DNA from: Actinomycetota bacterium
GTDB lineage: Bacteria > Actinomycetota > UBA4738 > HRBIN12
Assembly: GCA_036374435.1 (NCBI GenBank)
Contig: DASUTU010000153.1
Location: forward strand, 7,393-71,392
Direction of reading: 5' to 3'
Length of the DNA stretch: 64,000 bases
A model generated the notes under the pieces. That model was not told where the DNA came from. It saw only the letters and a program-made list of their open reading frames with translations, and searched no databases. The position numbers and the translations under genes were made by a program. Shown here piece by piece: positions 37,651 through 48,402 of this stretch; the stretch's first letter is position 1; each line of letters starts with the position of its first letter.

Positions 37651-37809
37651 CGGGGTTGCACGTGGCCCGGTTCCGGGCCTAGTTTCAGGGGTGTAATCAC
37701 AGGAGCGTGGTTCGTGTCGGACCCTCACGGTAACGTCCGTCCCGCACTCGGGGAGGGGCTCACCGGCGTGGTGAAGCGGTGGGCGAGGGATCAGAAGGAG
37801 GCTTCGCGC

Positions 37810-38910
<1,101 letters not shown>

Positions 38911-38947
38911 GGGAAGGGTCGGCCGGCCCCGGTCTCTCGCTGCCTCC

Positions 38948-39421
38948 ATGGCCAAGACGCCGCTGGACTGCCACGAGCGGGCCCTCGGCCTGCTGGCCGT
39001 CCGGCCGCGGTCGCGCCGCGAGCTCCGCACCCGGCTCCTGCGGGCAGGGTTCGAGGCGGGCGAGGTCGACGGGGAGCTCGAGCGGCTCGAAGCGGTGGGG
39101 CTCGTGGACGACGACGAGTTCGCCCGCCGGGTGGCCGAACACGAGCTCTCGGTGCGGTTGTCCGGGCGGCGGGCCATCGAGAACCGGCTGGCCGCCAAAG
39201 GCGTGGACCGGGCCACGATCGACCGTGCCCTGGAGGACGTCGGCGTTCCGGACGAGGAGCGTGCTCTCGAGCTGGCGCGGGATCGAGCCCGCCGGCTGGG
39301 CGGCCTCCGGCCCGAACAGGCCTACTCCCGCCTGGTGTCGTTCCTGGCCAGGCGGGGCTATGAGCCCGGCATCGCCCACAGCGCCGCCCGGGCCGCGCTC
39401 GGGGCCGGGACGGAGGAGTGA
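38948..39421 (+). CDS. recX: RecA regulator RecX
   Basis: MAKTPLDCHERALGLLAVRPRSRRELRTRLLRAGF, repeated three-helix modules. Directly downstream of recA. Confidence 0.85.
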   Translation: MAKTPLDCHERALGLLAVRPRSRRELRTRLLRAGFEAGEVDGELERLEAVGLVDDDEFARRVAEHELSVRLSGRRAIENRLAAKGVDRATIDRALEDVGVPDEERALELARDRARRLGGLRPEQAYSRLVSFLARRGYEPGIAHSAARAALGAGTEE

Positions 39422-39620
39422 GGGGTGTGGAGGCCACCCTTGCCTCATCGTGCGAGAGGCCGTACCCTCGGCGCAGAAGGTTCATCGGATCGTCAACTGT
39501 TCGAGACGCGCCTGACACGTCGAGATCGAAGACACAAGGTTCCCAGGTAGCAGACCGGATCCGGGGAGGCGAAGGGCCGCACAGGCAGCGCCGTCCCTAG
39601 ATCATCCGTATCGGACGCAC

Positions 39621-39670
39621 GGCCGAACAGGGCCCGGTGGGCCTCGGTTCGGCCGTGTTGTCGTTTTGTT
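39621..39670 (+). terminator. hairpin GGCCGAACAGGGCCCGGTGGGCCTCGGTTCGGCC then GTGTTGTCGTTTTGTTCG, just before the rny SD
   Basis: Long GC stem with internal GGGCCC sub-palindrome and a T-rich tail. Ends about 12 nt before the rny SD GGGAGG. Could be the recX terminator or an rny leader attenuator. Confidence 0.4.
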
Positions 39671-39682
39671 CGGGAGGCGACG

Positions 39683-41215
39683 ATGGAAGCGTTCGTGGCG
39701 GGTGCCGTGGCTCTCGCCGTCGGGATCGGCATCGGGTTCCTCGTCCGCAAGGTGATCGCGCAGTCGCAGGTCCACAGCGCGGAGGCGAGGGCGCAGAAGG
39801 TCATCCTCGAGGCCGAACGCGAGGCGGAACACCTGACGCGAGAGGCGCTCGTCGAGGCCCGCGACGAGATCGGAGGGCTCCGGCGAGAGGCGGAGGAGGA
39901 CCTGCGGTCGCGGCGGGAGGAGGTCAAACGTCAGGAGGAGCGCCTGGCGCAGAAGGAGTCGTCGGTCGATCGCAAGCTCGACGGGGCGGACCGCCGGGCC
40001 GAGGAGCTCGACGACCGCGACCGAAAGCTCCAGCAAGTGCGTCAGCAGCTCGAGCAGGCCGCGGAGCAACACCGCAAACGCCTGGAGGACATCGCCCACA
40101 TGACCGCGCAGGAGGCCAGGGAGGCCCTGCGCCGGCAGGTGGTGGAGGACGCCAAACGCGAGGCGATGGCCACCGTCCGCGAGATCGAGCAGCGGGCCAG
40201 GGAGGAGGGGGAGGAGCGCGCGCGCAAGATCGTGACGATCGCGATCCAGCGCGTGGCCTCGGAGCAGACGGCCGAGTCCTCCGTCTCGGTGTTCTCGCTG
40301 CCGAGCGAGGACATGAAGGGACGGATCATCGGACGGGAGGGCCGGAACATCCGGGCGTTCGAGGCCGTCACCGGCGTGAACCTGATCATCGACGACACGC
40401 CCGAGGCCGTCGTGTTGTCCTGCTTCGATCCCGTCCGTCGCGAGACCGCCCGCCTCACCCTGGAGAAGCTCGTCCAGGACGGCCGGATCCACCCGGCGAG
40501 GATCGAGGAGACGTTCGACCGTTCGTCGAGCGAGATCGAGGAGCGGATCCGTCGCGCCGGTGAGGAGGCCGTGATGGACGTCGGCATCACGGACATGCAC
40601 CCGGAGATGATCCGGCTCCTCGGCCGGCTCCAGTTCCGGACGTCGTACGGGCAGAACGTGCTTCGGCACCTGGTGGAGTCCGCGCACATCGCCGCGGCGA
40701 TCAGCACGGAGCTGGGCGTCGACCCCACGGTCCCCAAACGCGGCGCGCTCCTGCACGACATCGGCAAGGCCGTGACCCACGAGGTCGAGGGGTCGCACGC
40801 GATCATCGGCGCCGAGATCGCTCGGCGGATGAAGGAGGCCCCCGAGGTGGTGCACTGCATCGAGTCGCACCACGGCGAGGTCGAGCAGCGAACGATCGAG
40901 GCGGTCATCGCGCAGATCGCCGACGGGATCTCGGGCGGCCGTCCCGGCGCTCGCCGGGAGAGCCTCGAGACGTACGTGAAACGACTGGAGCGCCTCGAGG
41001 AGATCTGCACGAGTTACCCGGGGGTGGAGAAGGTCTACGCCATGCAGGCCGGCCGCGAGGTGCGTGTGATGGTCAAGCCCACCGACATCGACGACCTGTC
41101 CGCCCAGGTGATGGCGCGAGACATCGCCAAGCAGGTGGAAGAGGAGCTTCAGTACCCCGGCCAGATCAAGATCACCGTGGTCCGCGAGACCCGGTCGGTC
41201 GAATACGCGAAGTAG
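39683..41215 (+). CDS. rny: ribonuclease Y (N-terminal TM, coiled coil, KH and HD domains)
   Basis: MEAFVAGAVALAVGIGIGFLV TM; KH GRIIGREGRNIRAFEAVTGVNLIIDD; HD LRHLVESAHIAAAI...LLHDIGKA...ESHHGE. Confidence 0.9.
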   Translation: MEAFVAGAVALAVGIGIGFLVRKVIAQSQVHSAEARAQKVILEAEREAEHLTREALVEARDEIGGLRREAEEDLRSRREEVKRQEERLAQKESSVDRKLDGADRRAEELDDRDRKLQQVRQQLEQAAEQHRKRLEDIAHMTAQEAREALRRQVVEDAKREAMATVREIEQRAREEGEERARKIVTIAIQRVASEQTAESSVSVFSLPSEDMKGRIIGREGRNIRAFEAVTGVNLIIDDTPEAVVLSCFDPVRRETARLTLEKLVQDGRIHPARIEETFDRSSSEIEERIRRAGEEAVMDVGITDMHPEMIRLLGRLQFRTSYGQNVLRHLVESAHIAAAISTELGVDPTVPKRGALLHDIGKAVTHEVEGSHAIIGAEIARRMKEAPEVVHCIESHHGEVEQRTIEAVIAQIADGISGGRPGARRESLETYVKRLERLEEICTSYPGVEKVYAMQAGREVRVMVKPTDIDDLSAQVMARDIAKQVEEELQYPGQIKITVVRETRSVEYAK

Positions 41216-41249
41216 CCGCTCGCCCCGCTCGTCGCGGATGAGCAGATGA

Positions 41250-41298
41250 GCGGATGAGAGGAGTCTCATCCGCTCCTTACGGGGGCCTCACGCCCCCC
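41250..41298 (+). terminator. two consecutive hairpins downstream of rny (GCGGATGAGA-ggag-TCTCATCCGC, then GGGGGC-ctcac-GCCCCC)
   Basis: Perfect 10-bp stem followed by TCCTTAC, then a 6-bp GC stem. Weak U-tracts. Confidence 0.4.
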
Positions 41299-41347
41299 GG
41301 ATACCTTCGACTCGACGGATCGAGCGAGAAGAGGGGGAGGTATCCGC

Positions 41348-41716
41348 ATGATTCCGAAGATCCTGATGGGGCTCATGGTGGCGGCGCTCGTCGCCTTCGT
41401 GTATCCGGTCGCAACGCCGGCCGCAGGACGCGCCGACGACGAGGTCGTGGTGGCTCGCGAGGAAGACGTCGACGGCGAGGTCGTCTCCAACGACGACGGG
41501 GACGATGACGGCGGCGACACGAACGGCACCAACTCGTTCACGAGCGGGGTCGACAGCAACGACGGCACGAACAGCCGAGCGACGAGCGTCTCTCGAGGCG
41601 ACGATCGCAGCCGCGGGGACCTCACGCGGGACCGGACGAAGGACGGGCCCGGCTCCAGCACCCGCGACCGGTCACGACACCACACCAACGACCGGTCGCG
41701 GCACGACACCCGCTGA
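41348..41716 (+). CDS. small secreted acidic low-complexity protein (122 aa)
   Basis: SD GGGGGAGG before ATG. Signal peptide MIPKILMGLMVAALVAFVYPVATPAAG, then an Asp/Gly/Thr/Ser/Arg-rich tail (EEDVDGEVVSNDDGDDDGGDTNGTNSFTSGVDSNDGTNS...). Confidence 0.55.
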   Translation: MIPKILMGLMVAALVAFVYPVATPAAGRADDEVVVAREEDVDGEVVSNDDGDDDGGDTNGTNSFTSGVDSNDGTNSRATSVSRGDDRSRGDLTRDRTKDGPGSSTRDRSRHHTNDRSRHDTR

Positions 41717-41740
41717 CCCGGACCCGAGAGGACGGACGAG

Positions 41741-42643
41741 ATGGTGACCGCGACGAGCGACCTCCGCCGGGCCTGGGAGCTCGGCGCCGGGGACGAGATC
41801 GCCCCGGGGCTCCTCGCCCAGCAGCTGCTGGGCGGCGGGTCGAGGTACGAGGCGTACCTGGCGTTCGACGAGCGCCTGCATCACCTGGTCGTGGTGAAGG
41901 TCCTTCGCCCCGACCGGATCGGCGACGAGGCGGCCCGGAGCGGGCTCCGCGCAGAGGCGGAGGTGCTCGCCGCGGTCAACCACCCGGCGATCGCGCGCAT
42001 GCTCCGGGCCGGTCTGGACGACGAGCGCCCGCACTTGGTGCTCGAGTTCGTGGAGGGACCGCGCCTGTCGACGCTGATCCGCAGGTTCGGCCCGGTCGAG
42101 TCGGTCCAGGCGGCGCCCCTGGCGGTCGAGGTTGCCTCGGCGTTGCACTACCTGCACGGCCTCGGCCTGGTCCACCTGGACGTGAAGCCGAAGAACCTGA
42201 TCATGGGCGCACCCCCGCGCCTGATCGACCTCAGCATCGCCCGGTCGATCGAATCGGCGGCTCGGCTCGACGTGGCGATCGGGACCGACGCCTACATGGC
42301 GCCGGAGCAGTGCACGCCTTCACCCGGGCGCGTCGGGCCGCCCGCCGACGTGTGGGGTCTGGGCGTGACGTTGTACGAGGCGCTGGCCGGGCGCCCCGCC
42401 TTCCCGGCGGGTGATCCCGACGGCGCCTCGGCAGAAGAGCGGTTCCCGCAGCTCGTGTGTGGCGTGGAGCCGCTCCCGGAGCACGTGCCCGAGGAGCTGC
42501 GGAGCGCGGCCGAGGCCGCGTTGGCGTACGAACCCGCGGACCGGCCGGCCGTGGCAGAGCTCGCCGACCTGGTCGAGCCGCTCCTGCGGCACCCCCGGCG
42601 CCTGGTGCTCAACCAGCTGAAACCGAGAACGAGGAAGGAGTGA
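41741..42643 (+). CDS. Hanks-type Ser/Thr protein kinase, catalytic domain only (300 aa, no sensor or TM)
   Basis: G-loop LGGGSRYEAY, VVVKVL (Lys), HLDVKPKNL (HRD-like loop with Leu for Arg), IDLS (DFG-like), TDAYMAPE (APE). Confidence 0.85.
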   Translation: MVTATSDLRRAWELGAGDEIAPGLLAQQLLGGGSRYEAYLAFDERLHHLVVVKVLRPDRIGDEAARSGLRAEAEVLAAVNHPAIARMLRAGLDDERPHLVLEFVEGPRLSTLIRRFGPVESVQAAPLAVEVASALHYLHGLGLVHLDVKPKNLIMGAPPRLIDLSIARSIESAARLDVAIGTDAYMAPEQCTPSPGRVGPPADVWGLGVTLYEALAGRPAFPAGDPDGASAEERFPQLVCGVEPLPEHVPEELRSAAEAALAYEPADRPAVAELADLVEPLLRHPRRLVLNQLKPRTRKE

Positions 42644-42649
42644 GGGGAG

Positions 42650-43072
42650 ATGCCCTGGGGGAAGATCGCGGTGGTCGGGCTGGCCACGCTGGTCACGCTC
42701 GGCCTGGGATTGGTGGCGACGCAACCGTGGAAGGGGCCGAACCCGGTGGACGCCCTGGAGCTCGATCAAGCCTGGAAAGATGGCGATGCTCCCGACGGCG
42801 AGATCGGGGACGATGACGACGATGGCGACGACACCGGGACCCGCACCCGAGGCGGTGCACGGGACGCCTCTCGCACCGACGACGGCCGGGACGGAACCCG
42901 CGAGGGCGACACCCGCGGGGCACGCGGGACGGGAACGGCCGACAGCGTCGCGGTCGCGACCAACACCGGAGGGGACCGCGACACCAACGGCGGGGTCGTC
43001 ACGGCCACCGACGACGGGGGCGGGGCCCCCAGCGTCTCGCGGGACAGCGTCTCCGGAGGCAGCGATACCTGA
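42650..43072 (+). CDS. small secreted/membrane-anchored acidic low-complexity protein (140 aa), paralogue-like to 41348..41716
   Basis: SD GAGGGGAG before ATG, 7 nt after the kinase stop. MPWGKIAVVGLATLVTLGLGLVATQPW, then DGDAPDGEIGDDDDDGDDTGTRTRGGARDASRTDDGRDGTREGD... Confidence 0.55.
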   Translation: MPWGKIAVVGLATLVTLGLGLVATQPWKGPNPVDALELDQAWKDGDAPDGEIGDDDDDGDDTGTRTRGGARDASRTDDGRDGTREGDTRGARGTGTADSVAVATNTGGDRDTNGGVVTATDDGGGAPSVSRDSVSGGSDT

Positions 43073-43094
43073 TCCATCCGATCGAGATCCCGAC

Positions 43095-44579
43095 GTGGCC
43101 CCCGGGAGCGACTCCCGGGGGCCCGTTCCTTCGCGGCGGCGGTTGAGCTCGAGCATCGCCGTCCGGATCCTTCTCGCGTTCGCGGCGCTCATGACGGTCG
43201 CTACGGTGGTCTCGGTCATCTTGGTGCGGCAGGTGTTGTTCGCCGGGCTGGACGGCCGGATCGACTCCGACCTGGTTCAGGAATCGCGCGAGCTCACGCG
43301 CCTCGCTCGCGGGAACGACCCGGACACCGGCGAGCCGTTCGGGACCGACGTTCGGCGGATCCTCGAGGTCTTCCTCCAGCGGAACGTCCCGGCCCGCAAC
43401 GAAGCGTTGTTGTCCTTCGTGGGCGGGGAGCTCTTCGTGCGCAGCCGCAACGTGTTGCCCTACCGGCTCGACGAAGACGACGACCTGGTTCGCCGCTGGG
43501 TGGAGGCCTCGGACGTCCAGATGGACGCGGTGCAGACGCCGGGGGGCACGGTCCGGTACCTGGCCATGCCCGTGCAGGTGTCGGGTCGAACGGAGGCGGT
43601 GTTCGTGGCCGCCGTGTTCCGCGATCTCGAGGCCGAGTCGATCCAGCCGGCCGTTCGCGCGGCGGGCTTCGTCGGGCTGGGGGCCCTCCTGGTCGGTTCC
43701 CTCCTGGCGTTCCTGGTGGCGAGGAGGATCATCGACCGCGTGCAGGCGGTCGAGTTCAGCGCACGTTCGATCTCCGAGTCCGATCTCAGCCGCCGGGTGG
43801 AGGTGAGCGGCTCGGACGAGATCGCCCACCTCGCGCAGACGTTCAACGACCTGCTCGACCGCCTCGAGGGCGCGTTCCGAGCCCAGCGGGCGTTCGTGGA
43901 CGACGCGGGCCACGAGCTGCGCACGCCGATCACGATCATCCGCGGCCAGCTCGAGGTGCTCGGCGACGATCCACGACAACGAGAACACGCGGTGGCGCTC
44001 GTCACGAGCGAGCTCGACCGGATGAGCCGGATGGTGAACGACCTGCTCCTGTTGGCGAAGGCCGAGCAGCCGCAGTTCCTCGAGTTCGACCTCGTGGACG
44101 TCGGCTCGCTCACCCGTCGCGTGAACGAGAAAGCCGGGGCCCTCGCCGATCGGGACTGGCGGGTCGACGAGATCGCCGGCGGCGCCATCGTGGGCGACGG
44201 AGAGCGGTTGGAGCAGGCCCTGATCCAGCTCCTGCAGAACGCCGTCGATCACACGCCGGACGGAGCGGAGATCGCGGTCGGCTCGCGGATCCGCGACGGG
44301 GTCGCCGAGTTGTGGGTGCGGGACGCCGGGCCGGGCATCCCTCCCGAAGAACGTGAGCGCATCTTCGAACGGTTCGCCCGGGCCGGCGTCCGGCGCTCGG
44401 AGGGGGTCGGCCTCGGCCTGGCCATCGTGCGCGCGATCGCCGAAGGCCACGGCGGACGGGTCCGGCTGGACAGCGAGGTCGGGGTCGGGACCACGATCCG
44501 GATCGAGGTGCCGGTGGACCACGGGGCCGGCGCCGAGCTGCCGGAGGAACGCGAGGACGGCCCGGCGGAGCCCAGCTGA
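43095..44579 (+). CDS. sensor histidine kinase (2 TM, HAMP, HisKA, HATPase), start uncertain (GTG 43095 or TTG 43143)
   Basis: TM1 IAVRILLAFAALMTVATVVSVILV, TM2 AGFVGLGALLVGSLLAFLVA, H-box RAFVDDAGHELRTPIT, N/G boxes LIQLLQNAVDHT, VRDAGPGIP, GVGLGLAIV. Confidence 0.8.
   Translation: MAPGSDSRGPVPSRRRLSSSIAVRILLAFAALMTVATVVSVILVRQVLFAGLDGRIDSDLVQESRELTRLARGNDPDTGEPFGTDVRRILEVFLQRNVPARNEALLSFVGGELFVRSRNVLPYRLDEDDDLVRRWVEASDVQMDAVQTPGGTVRYLAMPVQVSGRTEAVFVAAVFRDLEAESIQPAVRAAGFVGLGALLVGSLLAFLVARRIIDRVQAVEFSARSISESDLSRRVEVSGSDEIAHLAQTFNDLLDRLEGAFRAQRAFVDDAGHELRTPITIIRGQLEVLGDDPRQREHAVALVTSELDRMSRMVNDLLLLAKAEQPQFLEFDLVDVGSLTRRVNEKAGALADRDWRVDEIAGGAIVGDGERLEQALIQLLQNAVDHTPDGAEIAVGSRIRDGVAELWVRDAGPGIPPEERERIFERFARAGVRRSEGVGLGLAIVRAIAEGHGGRVRLDSEVGVGTTIRIEVPVDHGAGAELPEEREDGPAEPS
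43099..43121 (+). promoter_or_regulatory. very stable hairpin CCCCCGGGAG-cga-CTCCCGGGGG (10-bp perfect stem)
   Basis: Lies 27 nt after the stop of the acidic-protein gene, at or just before the sensor-kinase start. Confidence 0.4.
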
Positions 44580-45244
44580 TGGGCGGCGCGCGGATCCTGA
44601 TCGCGGAGGACGAGGCCGGCATCTCGTCGTTCCTGGACAAGGGGCTCCGGGCCAACGGGTTCACCCCGACCGTCGTTGCCGACGGGGCCTCGGCCCTGGC
44701 GCTGGCCCGGACGGATCAGTTCGACCTCTTCGTGCTCGACCTCGGGCTCCCTTCGCTGGATGGCTTGTCGGTGTTGGAGGAGCTCCGCCGTACGGGCAGC
44801 CGGCTGCCGGTGGTGGTCCTCACGGCGCGGTCCGAGCTCGAGGACACCGTGGCCGGGCTGGACCTGGGCGCCGACGACTACGTCACAAAACCCTTCCGCT
44901 TCGAGGAGCTGCTGGCTCGCATCCGCGCCCGGCTCCGTACGGGAGGGGAGAAGCAGGAGCTCGAGCTGCTCGCCGGGGACGTCGCGCTCGACCTGCGTCG
45001 CCGACGCGCCCGGGTCGGAGAGCGGGAGGTGGACCTGTCCGCCCGCGAGTTCGCGCTCGCCGAGACCTTCTTCCGCCACCTGGGCCAGGTGTTGTCGCGG
45101 GAGCAGCTCCTCAGCCTGGTCTGGGGGTACGACCGTGATCCCGGGTCGAACGTCGTGGACGTGTACGTGGGGTACCTGCGCCGCAAGCTGGGGGACGACC
45201 TGATCTCCACGGTGCGGGGGATGGGGTACCGGCTCGAGGCGTGA
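44579..45244 (+). CDS. OmpR/PhoB-family response regulator
   Basis: ARILIAEDE...[10 protein letters not shown]...LTAR receiver domain; winged-helix [23 protein letters not shown]...[15 protein letters not shown] overlaps the kinase stop. Confidence 0.9.
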
Positions 45245-45264
45245 CGTTCGGTACCCTGCCCTGG

Positions 45265-46605
45265 ATGAGCGACCGCCGCTACCTGCTGCGCACCTTCGGG
45301 TGCCAGATGAACGAGCACGACTCCGAACGCATCGCCGGGCTGCTCACGGCCGACGGGTACGTCCCGACGGAGCAGGCGGCCGAGGCGAACGTGGTCGTGT
45401 TCAACACGTGCGCCATCCGGGAGAACGCGGACAACCGTCTGTACGGGAACCTCGGCCACCTGCGGCCGCTCAAGGAGCGCAACCCCCGGATGCGGATCGT
45501 CGTGGCCGGCTGTCTGGCGCAGAAGGACGGCGGACGGATCCAGGAGCGGGCGCCGTGGGTGGACGTGGTGATCGGCACCCACGCCCTGCCCGGGCTCCTC
45601 GAGCTGCTGCACCGCGCCGACGTCGAGGGGCCGCAGATGGACGTCCGCGAGTTCACCGAGGTGTTCCCCAGCGCCCTCCCGGCTCGCCGCGAGCTCGCCC
45701 ACCACGCGTGGGTCTCGATCGCGGTCGGATGCGACAACGCCTGCACGTTCTGCATCGTGCCGCTGGTTCGAGGCCCGCAGCTGTCGCGCCCGATCGGCGA
45801 CGTGCTCGCCGAGGTCCAGGCCCTGGCGCGCCGGGGCGTCGTCGAGGTCACGCTCCTCGGACAGAACGTCAACACCTACGGCCGCGACCTGACGGTCCCC
45901 GGATCTTCGCGCCGTCCGCTGTTCGCAGATCTCCTTCGAGCCGTGAACGAGGTGGACGGGATTCGCCGCATCCGGTTCACCAGCCCGCACCCGCACGACT
46001 TCACGCCCGACGTGGTCGACGCCATGGCCGACAGCGACAAGGTGTGTGAACACCTCCACTTCCCGCTCCAGTCGGGCTCCGACCGGATCCTGAAGGCCAT
46101 GCGCCGCAGCTACCGGCGCGAGCGGTACCTCGAGTGGCTCGAGCGGATCCGCGCCGCGGTCTCGGACGTCGCGGTCAGCACCGACGTGATCGTCGGGTTC
46201 CCCGGCGAGACCGAAGGCGACTTCGAAGACACGCTCGACGTCGTACGCCGGGCGCGCTTCGACCAGGCGTACACGTTCCAGTATTCGACCCGGCCCGGCA
46301 CCGTCGCCGCGACGATGGACGAGCACGTGCCGAAGGAGACCGTGCAGGAGCGGTTCGACCGGCTGGTCGCGCTCCAGGAGTCGATCTCGCTCGAACGCAT
46401 GCGCGAGCAGATCGGGACGACCGTCGAGGTGCTCGTCGAGGGTCGTGGGCGCAAGGGCCGGGTCCAGGGGCGGACCCGTACGAACCGGGTGGTGCACCTG
46501 GACGGCCAGCACGAGCCCGGCGAGTTCGTCGTGGCGACGATCGTCGGCGCCCATCCCCACCACCTGGATGGTGAACGCGTGAAGGAGCGGGTTCCGGCGG
46601 CCTGA
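45265..46605 (+). CDS. miaB: tRNA-i6A37 methylthiotransferase MiaB (radical SAM)
   Basis: [19 protein letters not shown]; radical-SAM CxxxCxxC in [14 protein letters not shown]; TRAM domain at the C-terminus. Confidence 0.9.
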
Positions 46606-47537
46606 TGGGCGGCAACGGAGAGGCGGAGCGGCTGCTCGCGCTCGTCGGGCCGACCGCCTCGGGGAAGACCGACGCCGCGATCGCGCTGGCCGAACGCCTC
46701 GGAGCCGAGATCGTCTCGGTCGACTCGATGCTCGTCTACCGGGGGATGGACGTGGGCACGGCCAAACCCTCCCCGGAGCAGCGGCGTCGGGTGCCGCACC
46801 ACCTCGTGGACGTGGCCGAGCCCTCCGAGCCGTTCAGCGTGGCCCGCTATCAGGCCCTCGCGCGCGAGGCGATCGCCGGCATCCGTGAGCGGGGACGGCG
46901 TCCGCTGCTGGTCGGCGGGACGGCCCTGTACCTCCGGGCGGTGGCGGACGACCTGGATCTCCCGCCGACCGACCCCGGCATCCGAGCGGCGCTCGAGGAC
47001 GAAGCCGGGCGCCTCGGCGCGATCGAGCTCTACGAGCGGCTGGCCCGCAGCGACCCCGTCGCCGCGGCGAAGATCGAGCCGGCCAACGTCCGGCGGACGG
47101 TCCGCGCGCTCGAGGTGGCCCAGCTGACGGGCCGGCCGTTCTCCAGCTTCGCCTCCGCCTGGGAACGGTTCGAGCCCTCGCGCCTGCGGGCCGCCGGCGT
47201 CGAGCTTCCTCGGCCCCGGCTCGCCGGACGGATCCGGGACCGCGTGGCGCGGATGCTCGAGCTCGGCCTGCTCGAGGAGGTCGCGGGTCTGGTCGAGCGC
47301 GGACTTGGGGAGTGGCTCACCGCGTCCCAGGCCATCGGGTACGCTGAGTTCGCGCGGCACCTGGCCGGCGAGCTGACGCTGGAGGAGGCCGTGGCCGGCA
47401 CCGGGCGGCGGACGACGGCGCTGGCGCGCCGACAGATGGCCTTCTTCCGGCGCGATCCCCGGATCCGGTGGTTCGAGACGGAAGGGGGAGGCGCCGAGCG
47501 GGTCGTGGACGAGATCGCGGAGCACCTCGATGGCTGA
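46605..47537 (+). CDS. miaA: tRNA dimethylallyltransferase
   Basis: P-loop LVGPTASGKTDAAIALAERLGAEIVSVDSMLVYRGMDVGTAKP. Confidence 0.9.
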   Translation: MGGNGEAERLLALVGPTASGKTDAAIALAERLGAEIVSVDSMLVYRGMDVGTAKPSPEQRRRVPHHLVDVAEPSEPFSVARYQALAREAIAGIRERGRRPLLVGGTALYLRAVADDLDLPPTDPGIRAALEDEAGRLGAIELYERLARSDPVAAAKIEPANVRRTVRALEVAQLTGRPFSSFASAWERFEPSRLRAAGVELPRPRLAGRIRDRVARMLELGLLEEVAGLVERGLGEWLTASQAIGYAEFARHLAGELTLEEAVAGTGRRTTALARRQMAFFRRDPRIRWFETEGGGAERVVDEIAEHLDG

Positions 47538-48402
47538 ACGGACGATGTGGAAGTACCACGGGACGGGCAACGACTTCGTCCTGCTCGAAGACCTCGAGGA
47601 CGAACGGCCGCTCGACCCGGACCTGGTCGCCGCGCTGTGCGACCGCCACCTCGGCGTGGGCGGCGACGGGGTGATCCGAGTGGTCCGCGGCCGGGACGGC
47701 ACGGACTTCTTCATGGACTACCGCAACGCGGACGGGTCGCTCGCCGAGATGTGCGGCAACGGCATCCGATGTCTCGGCAAGCTCGTCTACGACCGCGGCC
47801 ACACGTCGGCGACCGAGCTGGACGTGGACACGCGCGACGGCGTGAAACATCTCTCGCTCGACGTGCGCGAGGGCGTCGTGCATACGGTCACCGTGGGGAT
47901 GGGACCGCCGGCGTTCGCGCGCGGAGAGATCCCGATGGCCGGCCCCGCCGGTCAGCCGTTCCTGACCGAACCCTTCGACGTGGACGGACGGACGTTCAAG
48001 GCGACGGCCGTGTCGATGGGCAACCCCCACTTGGTGCTGTTCGTCGAGCGCGACCCGGCCGAGGTCGACGTCCGCACGATCGGCCCGAGGATCGAACACG
48101 ACCCGCGCTTCCCACAGAAGACCAACGTGGAGTTCGTCGCGGTGGAGGACGGCGGCGTCCGTGCCCGGGTGTGGGAGCGTGGCTCCGGCGAGACCATGGC
48201 CTGCGGCACCGGCGCGTGCGCCGTCCTGGTGGCGGCCAACGAGGCGGGGCTCGTGCCCTCCCGGGCCGAGGTCCGCTTCCCCGGCGGGACGCTCGTGGTC
48301 GAGCGCGCCTCCGACGAGGTCTTGCTCACCGGGCCGGCCGAGCTCGTGTTCGAGGCCACGATCGACCAGGCCTGGCTGGCGGCGAGAGGGTTCGGCGCGT
48401 GA
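47530..48402 (+). CDS. dapF: diaminopimelate epimerase
   Basis: KYHGTGNDFVLLED, MCGNGIRCL (active-site Cys), MACGTGACAV (second Cys). Confidence 0.9.
   Translation: MAERTMWKYHGTGNDFVLLEDLEDERPLDPDLVAALCDRHLGVGGDGVIRVVRGRDGTDFFMDYRNADGSLAEMCGNGIRCLGKLVYDRGHTSATELDVDTRDGVKHLSLDVREGVVHTVTVGMGPPAFARGEIPMAGPAGQPFLTEPFDVDGRTFKATAVSMGNPHLVLFVERDPAEVDVRTIGPRIEHDPRFPQKTNVEFVAVEDGGVRARVWERGSGETMACGTGACAVLVAANEAGLVPSRAEVRFPGGTLVVERASDEVLLTGPAELVFEATIDQAWLAARGFGA

Follow-up and report, generated by a model that had tools for sequence, protein, structure and literature searches.

A stretch of 64,000 nucleotides from an Actinomycetota bacterium (assembly GCA_036374435.1, contig DASUTU010000153.1, positions 7,393 to 71,392 of the forward strand; hereafter the window) carries five adjacent genes that encode a small protein, sORF1, a Hanks-type Ser/Thr kinase, a second small protein, sORF2, a histidine kinase (HK) and a response regulator (RR). 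Comparison with related loci indicates that these genes almost certainly form a real cassette conserved across soil Actinomycetota, in which exported members of two protein families, A (sORF1) and C (sORF2), accompany a kinase that consists of a catalytic domain only. The parts that are ordinary are the Hanks kinase and the OmpR-type two-component system (TCS); what is new are the two small-protein families, a promoter motif that recurs in front of the cassette genes, and the obligatory association of these components. The first-pass annotation of this DNA did not recognise a described module in the arrangement, and our searches of Pfam, NCBIfam, Rfam and the literature likewise found no family or paper describing it. 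The features are listed in Table 1.

Table 1. Features of the cassette, in positions of the window.
Feature	Position	Strand	Evidence
pho-box-like promoter/operator	41254..41307	+	palindrome, 11-bp repeats, -10-like hexamer
sORF1 (A family), 122 aa	41348..41716	+	GC3 (G+C content at third codon positions), homologues, 120-sequence alignment, AlphaFold2 (AF2)
kinase-domain-only Hanks Ser/Thr kinase, 300 aa	41741..42643	+	Pfam, PDB matches, 81-sequence alignment
sORF2 (C family), 140 aa	42650..43072	+	GC3 0.85, homologues/motifs, AF2
GC-rich hairpin between sORF2 stop and first transmembrane segment (TM1) of HK	43092..43127	+	folding vs shuffles
membrane sensor histidine kinase	43095..44579	+	Pfam HAMP+HisKA+HATPase_c
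OmpR/PhoB-family response regulator, 221 aa	44579..45244	+	Pfam Response_reg + Trans_reg_C

All five open reading frames (ORFs) reported in the first pass were present and coding-like, with GC3 at 0.93 in both the kinase and the RR genes, 0.88 in sORF1 and 0.85 in sORF2, in a window of about 71% GC. Between 42780 and 43072 the coding signal lies in the frame of sORF2 and not in that of a long HK frame beginning at 42780, which places the HK start beyond 43072, most likely at GTG 43095 or else at TTG 43143. The gaps on the two sides of the kinase gene are 24 and 6 nt, each one shorter than first given. A Shine-Dalgarno sequence (SD) was indeed found for each small gene, GGGGGAGG for sORF1, with the correction that the functional SD of sORF2, GGAAGGAG (42633-42640), lies within the last codons of the kinase gene. 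The view that the small ORFs are spurious high-GC frames, and that the kinase and the TCS are the sole genes, could draw on the lack of any Pfam or NCBIfam match for either small protein, on their biased composition and on an antisense ORF overlapping the region. Absence of the small ORFs from close relatives had been named as the sign of such an artefact, and their conservation was found to reach well beyond close relatives: hundreds of homologues with invariant columns occur at a conserved position, both ORFs have conserved promoters and SDs of their own, and GC3 in the called frames is 0.85-0.88. Because the small ORFs are conserved, this view is already refuted and its probability is negligible. 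As judged from sequence, both are real genes and not chance frames.

The kinase family was found at 218 places in contigs representing one genome per species, and gene linkage was read from the best 80 of these; six further loci were sampled from A rather than from the kinase (L081 and L084-L088). The best 80 loci come from Nocardioides isolates and metagenome-assembled genomes (MAGs), Thermoleophilaceae, Solirubrobacterales, Gaiellaceae and many unclassified soil Actinomycetota, and the five components are found together in Nocardioides, in Thermoleophilia (Gaiellales, Solirubrobacterales) and in many soil Actinomycetota that are unclassified. In most of the best 80, A lies directly 5' of the kinase; in loci without A upstream, C lies downstream, and at nearly every locus at least one acidic exported protein flanks the kinase. 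The detector that we used for ORFs with a signal peptide and an acidic tail was conservative and missed sORF1 of the window itself, and its counts are lower bounds. HK and RR genes were located within 6 kb of the kinase in at least 59 of the 86 loci, despite three different orientations. The order A-kinase-C-HK-RR was seen in the window and in L001, L002, L004, L081 and L086, and L003 shows kinase-C-HK-RR on a contig that ends at the kinase. In Nocardioides, A-kinase is convergent with RR-HK, and in a third arrangement RR-HK is divergent from kinase-C, with A located beyond the RR in L008 and L054.

The sandwich of the kinase between two small genes, for which a conservation check had been proposed, is conserved in the relatives L001, L002 and L004 and was also found in L081, L086 and L088 in unrelated contexts. 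Among the loci sampled from A, the kinase is immediately 3' of A in five of six: L081 and L086 have all five genes, L088 has the A-kinase-C trio, L084 and L085 have A-kinase only, and L087 has A alone. Because the surroundings differ (rny and miaB in the window, rpoC and rpsL on the two sides of the trio in L088, and others in L081 and L086), these data suggest that the cassette moves as a unit. A serine recombinase gene is located about 2 kb 5' of the cassette in L086. The cassette is also present in cultured Nocardioides type strains, including N. deserti, N. gilvus, N. dubius and N. marmoriginsengisoli.

Next to the HK, Nocardioides encodes a different small protein directly 5', in which a Pro/Ser/Thr linker joins a membrane anchor to a poly-Asp tail, and an anchored acidic protein precedes the HK in those Nocardioides loci that were examined as well as in the window clade. 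The motifs of this third type run D/E-P-x-P-R-[DE]-P-[VI]-[VI]-I, the Pro/Ser/Thr linker, V-R-V-V-x-P-x-P and poly-Asp, and its gene, which is unannotated, is the first of a leaderless operon with HK and RR (about 10352-10740 in L009 and about 8980-9280 in L023, both on the minus strand). The protein was rejected as a homologue of C, with a profile-profile (hhalign) probability of 6%, and is a positional and compositional analogue only.

The product of sORF1 is annotated as 'MAG TPA: hypothetical protein VF129_13715 [Actinomycetota bacterium]'. A search of 5.8 billion proteins returned 274 homologues at E<=1e-3, all unnamed or 'hypothetical', and in a library clustered at 50% identity the A family comprises at least 134 clusters of 41-194 aa, never fused to another domain, whose matches nearly all reach the C-terminal end of the protein or come within a few residues of it. 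The window protein is built of a Sec-type signal peptide (residues 1 to about 26), an acidic block (27-62; net charge -12) that carries R-E-E-D and poly-Asp, and a C-terminal domain (63-122, nt 41534-41713; net charge +3) that ends in TNDRSRHDTR. In an alignment of 120 sequences the signal peptide combines a basic N-terminus with a hydrophobic core about 13 residues long, breakers of the G/P type and A-x-A; the second block reads V-x-x-A-R-[DE]-E-D ... V-L ... poly-Asp; and the C-terminal 60-residue block reads FTSGVxSNDGTNSRxTxVSRxxDRSRGDLTRDRTKDGPGxxTRDRSxxxTNDRSRxDTR, with D72, T74, S76, D86, S88, T93, D95, T97, D107, T113, N114, D115, D120 and R122 identical in all 120. The tail motif is a near-invariant array of [ST]-[RKN]-D tetrads (for example GDLTRDRTKDGPG), in which a hydroxyl residue occupies each fourth position from 93 to 121, amounting to about 15 conserved hydroxyl positions per 60 residues with a period of 4. 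Positions 79, 82, 109, 117 and 121 exchange Ser and Thr only, and such restricted columns imply that the hydroxyl itself is required. In distant loci the tail is swapped for pure TRDN, VTND, SRDG or TKDN repeats, while the signal peptide and K-R-E-D-D ... poly-Asp stay; since these divergent lineages replace the tail by pure tetrad repeats, the tetrad is the feature that is retained. One A-family member (L084, 8001-8561) has two tandem copies of the C-terminal tetrad domain.

The small proteins had been described as having acidic low-complexity tails. Their acidity was confirmed, and the tail of sORF1 is not free low-complexity sequence, in that 19 columns are invariant among 26 sequences, in agreement with the wider alignment. 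The AF2 model of sORF1, based on those 26 sequences, has a predicted local distance difference test score (pLDDT) of 54 with an N-terminal helix only; that of sORF2 has a pLDDT of 52, with helices at 3-23 and 32-42 and the rest disordered. A folded domain in either protein was rejected on these scores and on the lack of tertiary structure in the models. Neither RTX nor EF-hand repeats were detected by Pfam, and the models contain no beta-roll. The export-type N-termini and the disorder that the first-pass annotation proposed for both proteins are thus both borne out by prediction; A and C are in all likelihood exported by Sec, and sORF1 is best described as a conserved motif array in a chain predicted to be disordered and exported. 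Both proteins are rich in Asp, Thr, Arg and Gly, and Cys is absent from both.

The sORF2 protein begins with M-P-W-G-K and a membrane helix (3-23), continues with a VDALELD helix (32-42), poly-Asp and the invariant motif TDDGRDGTREGDT, and closes with a Gly/Thr/Asp tail ending in SGGSDT. Conserved throughout the C family are M-[PR]-W-G-K, the membrane helix, QPW..P..VDALELD, R-R-E-D-D ... poly-Asp, the invariant TDDGRDGTR[ED]GDT, in which C retains an invariant Thr in D-G-T-R and in G-D-T, and a C-terminal SGGxDT. A word-based search found seven homologues, and a hidden Markov model (HMM) of the N-terminus places C directly 3' of the kinase in close relatives and in L081-L083, with weaker scores in 13 Gaiellales-like loci, where the C tail consists of tandem repeats of about 18 residues, GDGDDTRGNDGTSGGNNT. 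Of the proposal that sORF1 and sORF2 are paralogous, only a common N-terminal architecture stands. BLASTP gave no alignment between them, and hhalign aligned (95% probability, E 2.4e-8) the N-terminal 55 columns only, namely the hydrophobic segment, R-E/D-D-D and poly-Asp. Direct paralogy of the whole proteins was therefore rejected, and by their sequences they appear to be two distinct families; the short motifs N-D-G-T and G-D-x-T-R are common to both.

The kinase matches Pkinase (PF00069) over residues 28-274 of 300 (6e-39; 134 bits against a cut-off of 31.7), and its nearest solved structures are the kinase domains of PknB and PknA (E about 1e-31). As had been noted, it has no transmembrane or sensor domain: we found no hydrophobic segment and no further Pfam domain, and its score with the PknB/PASTA-type receptor kinase model NF033483 is 138 bits against a cut-off of 450. 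The homologues are nearly all 280-300 aa long, that is, a catalytic domain only. Aligned with 80 homologues, the window kinase shows a conserved GGGxxYE loop, the beta3 Lys (VVvK), the alpha-C Glu, HLD.KPsN, DLS and GTDAYMAPEQ; in the window kinase itself the Lys stands in VVVK and the catalytic Asp/Asn in HLDvKPkN. The substitutions HLD for HRD and DLS for DFG, from which an atypical or weakly active kinase had been suspected, are therefore real and family-wide, and the suspicion itself does not hold, since they are conserved in about 80 homologues and the catalytic core is otherwise intact: the catalytic Lys, the catalytic Asp/Asn and the Mg-binding Asp, whose loss would have spoken for a dead enzyme, are all present. 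HLD throughout the family sets the kinase apart from RD kinases, and because HLD and DLS are family-wide while the catalytic residues are intact, the sequence points to a non-RD Hanks kinase with an intact core and not to a decayed one. Besides the cassette kinase, some loci have a further Pkinase gene at a greater distance (L085, 7653-9065; L008, 4698-5303; L075, 2789-3655). L075 carries a second full RR-HK-kinase set, which points to duplication of the module within genomes.

Aligning the region upstream of sORF1 with those of L001, L002 and L004 revealed invariant blocks that belong to a promoter missed by the earlier annotation, and it is this promoter that ties the cassette genes into one regulon. 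Its parts in the window are the palindrome ATGAGAGGAGTCTCAT (41254-41269), three direct repeats with an 11-bp period, TCTCAT (41264-69), CCTTAC (41275-80) and CCTCAC (41286-91), and, 10 nt after the third repeat, a -10-like TACCTT (41302-07). The general form is ATGAGA-N4-TCTCAT, the right arm of which is the first of three CTCA(C/T) repeats, with a TAnnnT-type hexamer 10 nt further on and no -35. The exact site occurs only once in the window, at 41254-41269; the related loci (0.96 Mb) contain 103 palindromes at up to one mismatch, against 0-1 in shuffled sequences. With up to two mismatches allowed there are 138 unique sites; the two further repeats follow in register at 100 of them, and 92 of these 100 have nAnnnT exactly 10 nt on. 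The sites lie about 95 nt 5' of A, directly 5' of separately transcribed C genes, in the divergent spacer between HK and kinase, and 5' of the Nocardioides operon of small protein, HK and RR; there the -10 is only 6-7 nt from the ATG, a signature of operons transcribed leaderless from the conserved -10. In E. coli and Streptomyces PHO boxes, the place of the -35 is taken by direct repeats spaced one helical turn (11 bp) apart, the last of which ends 10 bp before the -10, and the cassette promoter has this same architecture, with repeats in register, a fixed -10 spacing and no -35. It differs in the repeat itself, CTCA(C/T), and in the extra inverted half-site that makes up the palindrome. The presence of the promoter in front of sORF1, sORF2 and the sensor operon suggests that the cassette's own regulator is in control, and control of the cassette by some OmpR/PhoB-type regulator appears likely; the candidate binder that we infer is the OmpR/PhoB-type RR of the cassette itself.

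Several observations concern the same region. A simple sigma-70 and terminator scan of 41100-45400 gave no matches, and such a scan is uninformative for a 71% GC actinobacterium. The octamer GGATACCT (41299-41306) is the reverse complement of AGGTATCC (41339-41346), which begins in the SD of sORF1, and both are conserved in L001, L002 and L004. An anti-SD pairing of the two was set aside: the same bases are the conserved -10, spaced as in about 90 other sites. GGATACCT probably lies upstream of the transcript start, which is predicted near 41313-41316, and probably the match is a coincidence of promoter and SD instead of a pairing in a longer rny read-through transcript. Three tandem copies of GATGAG(C) (starts 41238, 41246 and 41253; region 41237-41259), not found in L001, lead into the palindrome and could be extra degenerate half-sites or a local duplication. 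The palindrome itself could double as the terminator hairpin of rny. Since the operator palindrome begins with ATG (ATGAGAG...), gene callers start sORF1-family genes wrongly at this promoter ATG, giving recurrent fake N-termini such as 'MRALSS..H..LT'. The plus-strand ORF 41254-41508 of the window ('MRGVSSAPYGGLTPPGYLRL...') is such an operator-started frame, as are those of many Nocardioides loci, and in L088 (6001-6090) the called 150-aa product begins exactly at the operator.

The HK has TM1, a periplasmic domain of about 150 aa, TM2, HAMP, HisKA and HATPase_c, and its sensor domain shows conserved family-specific DPxTGxPF and FLxRNVP motifs in 59 homologues. The RR, whose start overlaps the HK stop, has a receiver and a winged-helix Trans_reg_C domain, and the pair is thus a TCS of the OmpR/PhoB family. 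Their best NCBIfam models are the heavy-metal sensor TIGR01386 (CztS/SilS/CopS; 210 bits, under the cut-off of 292.6) and TIGR01387 (CztR/SilR/CopR; 199.6 bits, under the cut-off of 279.2). The nearest solved structure to the RR is PrrA of Mycobacterium tuberculosis (183 bits, against 155 for PhoP), and the window RR is 57-91% identical to the cassette RRs of other lineages. The hairpin noted near 43099 in the first pass proved to be real, with a folding energy of -33.7 kcal/mol (z -4.26), and none of 200 shuffles was as stable. An equivalent hairpin was found in six of seven close relatives, with different loops and outer stems, and in the window its stem contains the candidate HK start GTG 43095. 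It has no U-tract, and the simple terminator scan made no call there. An Rfam scan of 41150-43250 gave sub-threshold chance matches only, so that no known RNA element was assigned to the region 5' of sORF1 or to the hairpin. We infer that the hairpin acts as an attenuator of HK and RR expression relative to A, the kinase and C.

As a tentative working model, to which we give somewhat less than an even chance, the cassette would be a self-contained, autoregulated signalling and secretion unit of the cell envelope, whose kinase phosphorylates A and C before export. The cassette RR would bind the boxes and, in the window, produce a single transcript running from A through the kinase, C and the hairpin to HK and RR, with the hairpin lowering sensor and regulator output relative to the first three genes; RR-dependent co-induction of A, the kinase, C and the TCS itself is a step that we would defend with fair confidence. 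A and C would leave through Sec and remain disordered outside the membrane as polyanionic or polyampholyte chains. The kinase, made from the same mRNA, would phosphorylate the unfolded precursors before export at many of their hydroxyl tetrads ([ST]-[RKN]-D-x; D-G-T-R; G-D-T-R), and the phosphorylation might load the exported chains with phosphate or gate their release. Once outside, the chains might bind hard cations at high capacity, or serve as envelope polyanions, with their level monitored by the HK, in a logic akin to the SilE 'sponge' with carboxylate and phosphate ligands in place of His and Met. That the kinase acts on A or C at all is plausible at a little under even probability, and that A and C form a cation sponge is doubtful. 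A stronger version, in which a constitutively active minimal kinase poly-phosphorylates the tetrads of two Sec-exported disordered proteins before export and a private pho-box-like regulon sets their level, making a dedicated 'secreted phosphoprotein' system of Actinomycetota, is unlikely.

A and C are favoured as substrates because one or the other, and not the TCS, is the invariant neighbour of the kinase, because the Ser-or-Thr-only columns imply a required hydroxyl, because the tetrad survives when the rest of the tail changes, and because the organisation mirrors cotB/cotH/cotG (PMC7821199). The intact catalytic core was counted for the idea as well. A number of observations weigh against the model as a whole. 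The N-termini of sORF1 and sORF2 are positive-inside with strongly acidic flanks, so that the tails are predicted to lie outside, and the kinase, having neither a signal peptide nor a transmembrane segment, is cytoplasmic; from this predicted topology, phosphorylation of A and C must precede Sec export. Work cited in PMC1262709 reports that phosphorylation of beta-lactamase by Pkn2 blocked its secretion. We found no phosphatase, FHA domain or dedicated exporter linked to the cassette. The conserved Ser, Thr, Asp and Asn residues could instead be direct ligands or a docking motif. The metal idea draws on composition and on weak hints from context, and the NCBIfam scores leave HK and RR outside the heavy-metal systems CusRS, CztRS and SilRS. 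Finally, boxes are present in L085 and L088 although neither has an RR within 6 kb, and the binder could be an RR paralogue. That bacterial kinases can phosphorylate exported proteins nevertheless has two precedents, the Pkn2 case just named and BlaZ of S. aureus (PMC12432424). The context hints are ferritin and Bfd genes just upstream of the cassette in L081, feoAB and a cation-efflux gene beside the A gene with the doubled tetrad domain in L084, and a Cation_ATPase_N fragment upstream in L087.

The main rival makes the kinase a feedback or cross-talk element that phosphorylates the RR (or the HK) on Ser/Thr and tunes its output, A and C being unmodified outputs or periplasmic accessories or co-sensors and never kinase substrates. 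HK and RR adjoin the kinase in about three quarters of the loci, the PrrA regulator that is the nearest solved relative of the RR is critically regulated by Ser/Thr kinases (PMC9371303, PMC9045387), and the conflict of topology disappears. The tightest and most invariant neighbours of the kinase, however, are A upstream or C downstream and not the TCS, which varies in position and strand and has no genes within 6 kb in L005-L007, L084, L085 and L088, and the Ser-or-Thr-only columns and the tetrad periodicity are left unexplained; we regard this rival as rather unlikely. The kinase has no role at all, although it is the most constant partner of A, if the cassette is instead an autocrine peptide loop, with A as a Sec-exported pro-peptide whose released C-terminal end is sensed by the periplasmic domain of the HK, C as a membrane co-sensor (like CpxP, CseA or LpqB), and positive feedback through the RR boxes. 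A small exported precursor together with HK, RR and an autoregulated promoter does resemble Gram-positive pheromone cassettes, the conserved block of A ends at or near the C-terminus in nearly all 134 clusters, and C or an analogous anchored acidic protein is the immediate 5' neighbour of the HK, both in the window clade and in Nocardioides. But pheromones normally diversify, whereas the C-terminal 60 residues of A are near-invariant from Nocardioides to Thermoleophilia, across classes, and no processing protease or ABC-type exporter is linked in the loci examined, which makes the loop improbable.

The cytoplasmic kinase and its signal-peptide-bearing partners would also be reconciled if unexported A and C precursors titrated the kinase as substrates or pseudosubstrates, and the kinase passed the signal of Sec stress on to the regulator. 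The probable co-transcription and translational coupling of the genes fit such a secretion-load sensor; the idea is purely speculative, and no protease or chaperone genes with promoter boxes, which would be its output, occur in the loci examined. We consider it very improbable. Pre-export phosphorylation of A and C, tentative as it is, is the reading that we keep.

Among known systems, the cotB/cotH/cotG cluster of Bacillus subtilis combines a kinase gene with genes for two disordered, poly-phosphorylated tandem-repeat substrates rich in Ser/Thr and Arg/Lys (PMC7821199). The likeness lies in a kinase gene with two disordered repeat proteins, whose products in the Cot system build an extracytoplasmic surface layer. 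CotH, in contrast, is an atypical Fam20C-like kinase, whereas the cassette kinase has the canonical Pkinase fold, and the Cot substrates lack signal peptides, are modified in the mother cell and have no linked TCS. The resemblance is functional and organisational only, with phosphorylation in the cassette a proposal made by analogy; its pre-export logic may also be likened to that of the S-x-E kinases of the secretory pathway. SilE is a disordered periplasmic sponge encoded in the sil operon, which also carries silRS (PMC5008109). Like SilE and PcoE, A and C are small, predicted disordered envelope proteins with export-type signal sequences, encoded beside a TCS, which in the cassette scores best, though under the cut-offs, with the heavy-metal models of the CusRS kind. 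SilE binds Ag+ through His/Met motifs, whereas the Asp/Thr/Arg/Gly-rich A and C would favour hard cations if any, and the cassette shows no SilE homology by Pfam or NCBIfam, has no linked efflux pump and includes a Ser/Thr kinase.

Three response regulators of M. tuberculosis, PrrA, DosR and MtrA, are under Ser/Thr-kinase control (PMC9371303, PMC9045387, PMC12919924). The cassette resembles the PrrA case in bringing an OmpR-family RR, with PrrA as its nearest solved relative, together with a Hanks kinase. The M. tuberculosis kinases that act on RRs are unlinked and mostly membrane receptor kinases, whereas the cassette kinase is a bare, non-RD catalytic domain linked to two exported proteins and placed under an RR-type promoter. 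Despite its PHO-like boxes the TCS is not a canonical PhoRP, having no phoU linkage and scores under the cut-off with PhoB and PhoR models. Mycobacterial MprA boxes may have repeats of a similar TCTCA type; a literature search for that comparison yielded nothing usable. In class III/IV lanthipeptide synthetases (LanKC/LanL), too, a kinase domain adjoins a gene for a small Ser/Thr-rich peptide, but the cassette has no lyase or cyclase domains and no Cys, its small proteins have Sec signal peptides instead of leader peptides, and only the kinase domain aligns with the NCBIfam synthetase model (87 bits against a cut-off of 650).

There is a minority chance that the cassette is a new kind of system, for the programmed phosphorylation of secreted disordered proteins. 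If the kinase does modify the exported proteins, the cassette would provide a genetically defined case of programmed poly-phosphorylation of such proteins in bacteria, and phosphate- and carboxylate-rich extracellular polyanions would be a bacterial counterpart of caseins, osteopontin or phosphophoryn, secreted phosphoproteins that might act at the cell surface as buffers or traps for hard cations or as nucleators of mineral. If the kinase acts on the regulator, the cassette would show in minimal form, with a three-promoter regulon, how a kinase and a two-component system are integrated. Connections of Ser/Thr kinases with TCSs are known mainly from pathogens, as unlinked cross-talk, and here they would be hard-wired in a small, portable and self-regulated cassette. 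Either way, the promoter motif is a handle for locating the regulon in whole genomes and accounts for the recurrent mis-annotation of sORF1. Direct tests of promoter binding, export, phosphorylation and the sensor ligand are possible because type strains of Nocardioides that carry the cassette are in culture.

The gene order in the window is recA, recX, rny, sORF1, kinase, sORF2, HK, RR, miaB, miaA and dapF, and the nearest relatives of the window are unclassified soil Actinomycetota MAGs. The cassette thus lies between rny and miaB within an otherwise housekeeping run (recA-recX-rny ... miaB-miaA-dapF-hflX), with flanks at 37714-41215 and 45241-48402. The RNase Y gene rny, which adjoins recA-recX, occupies 39683-41215.

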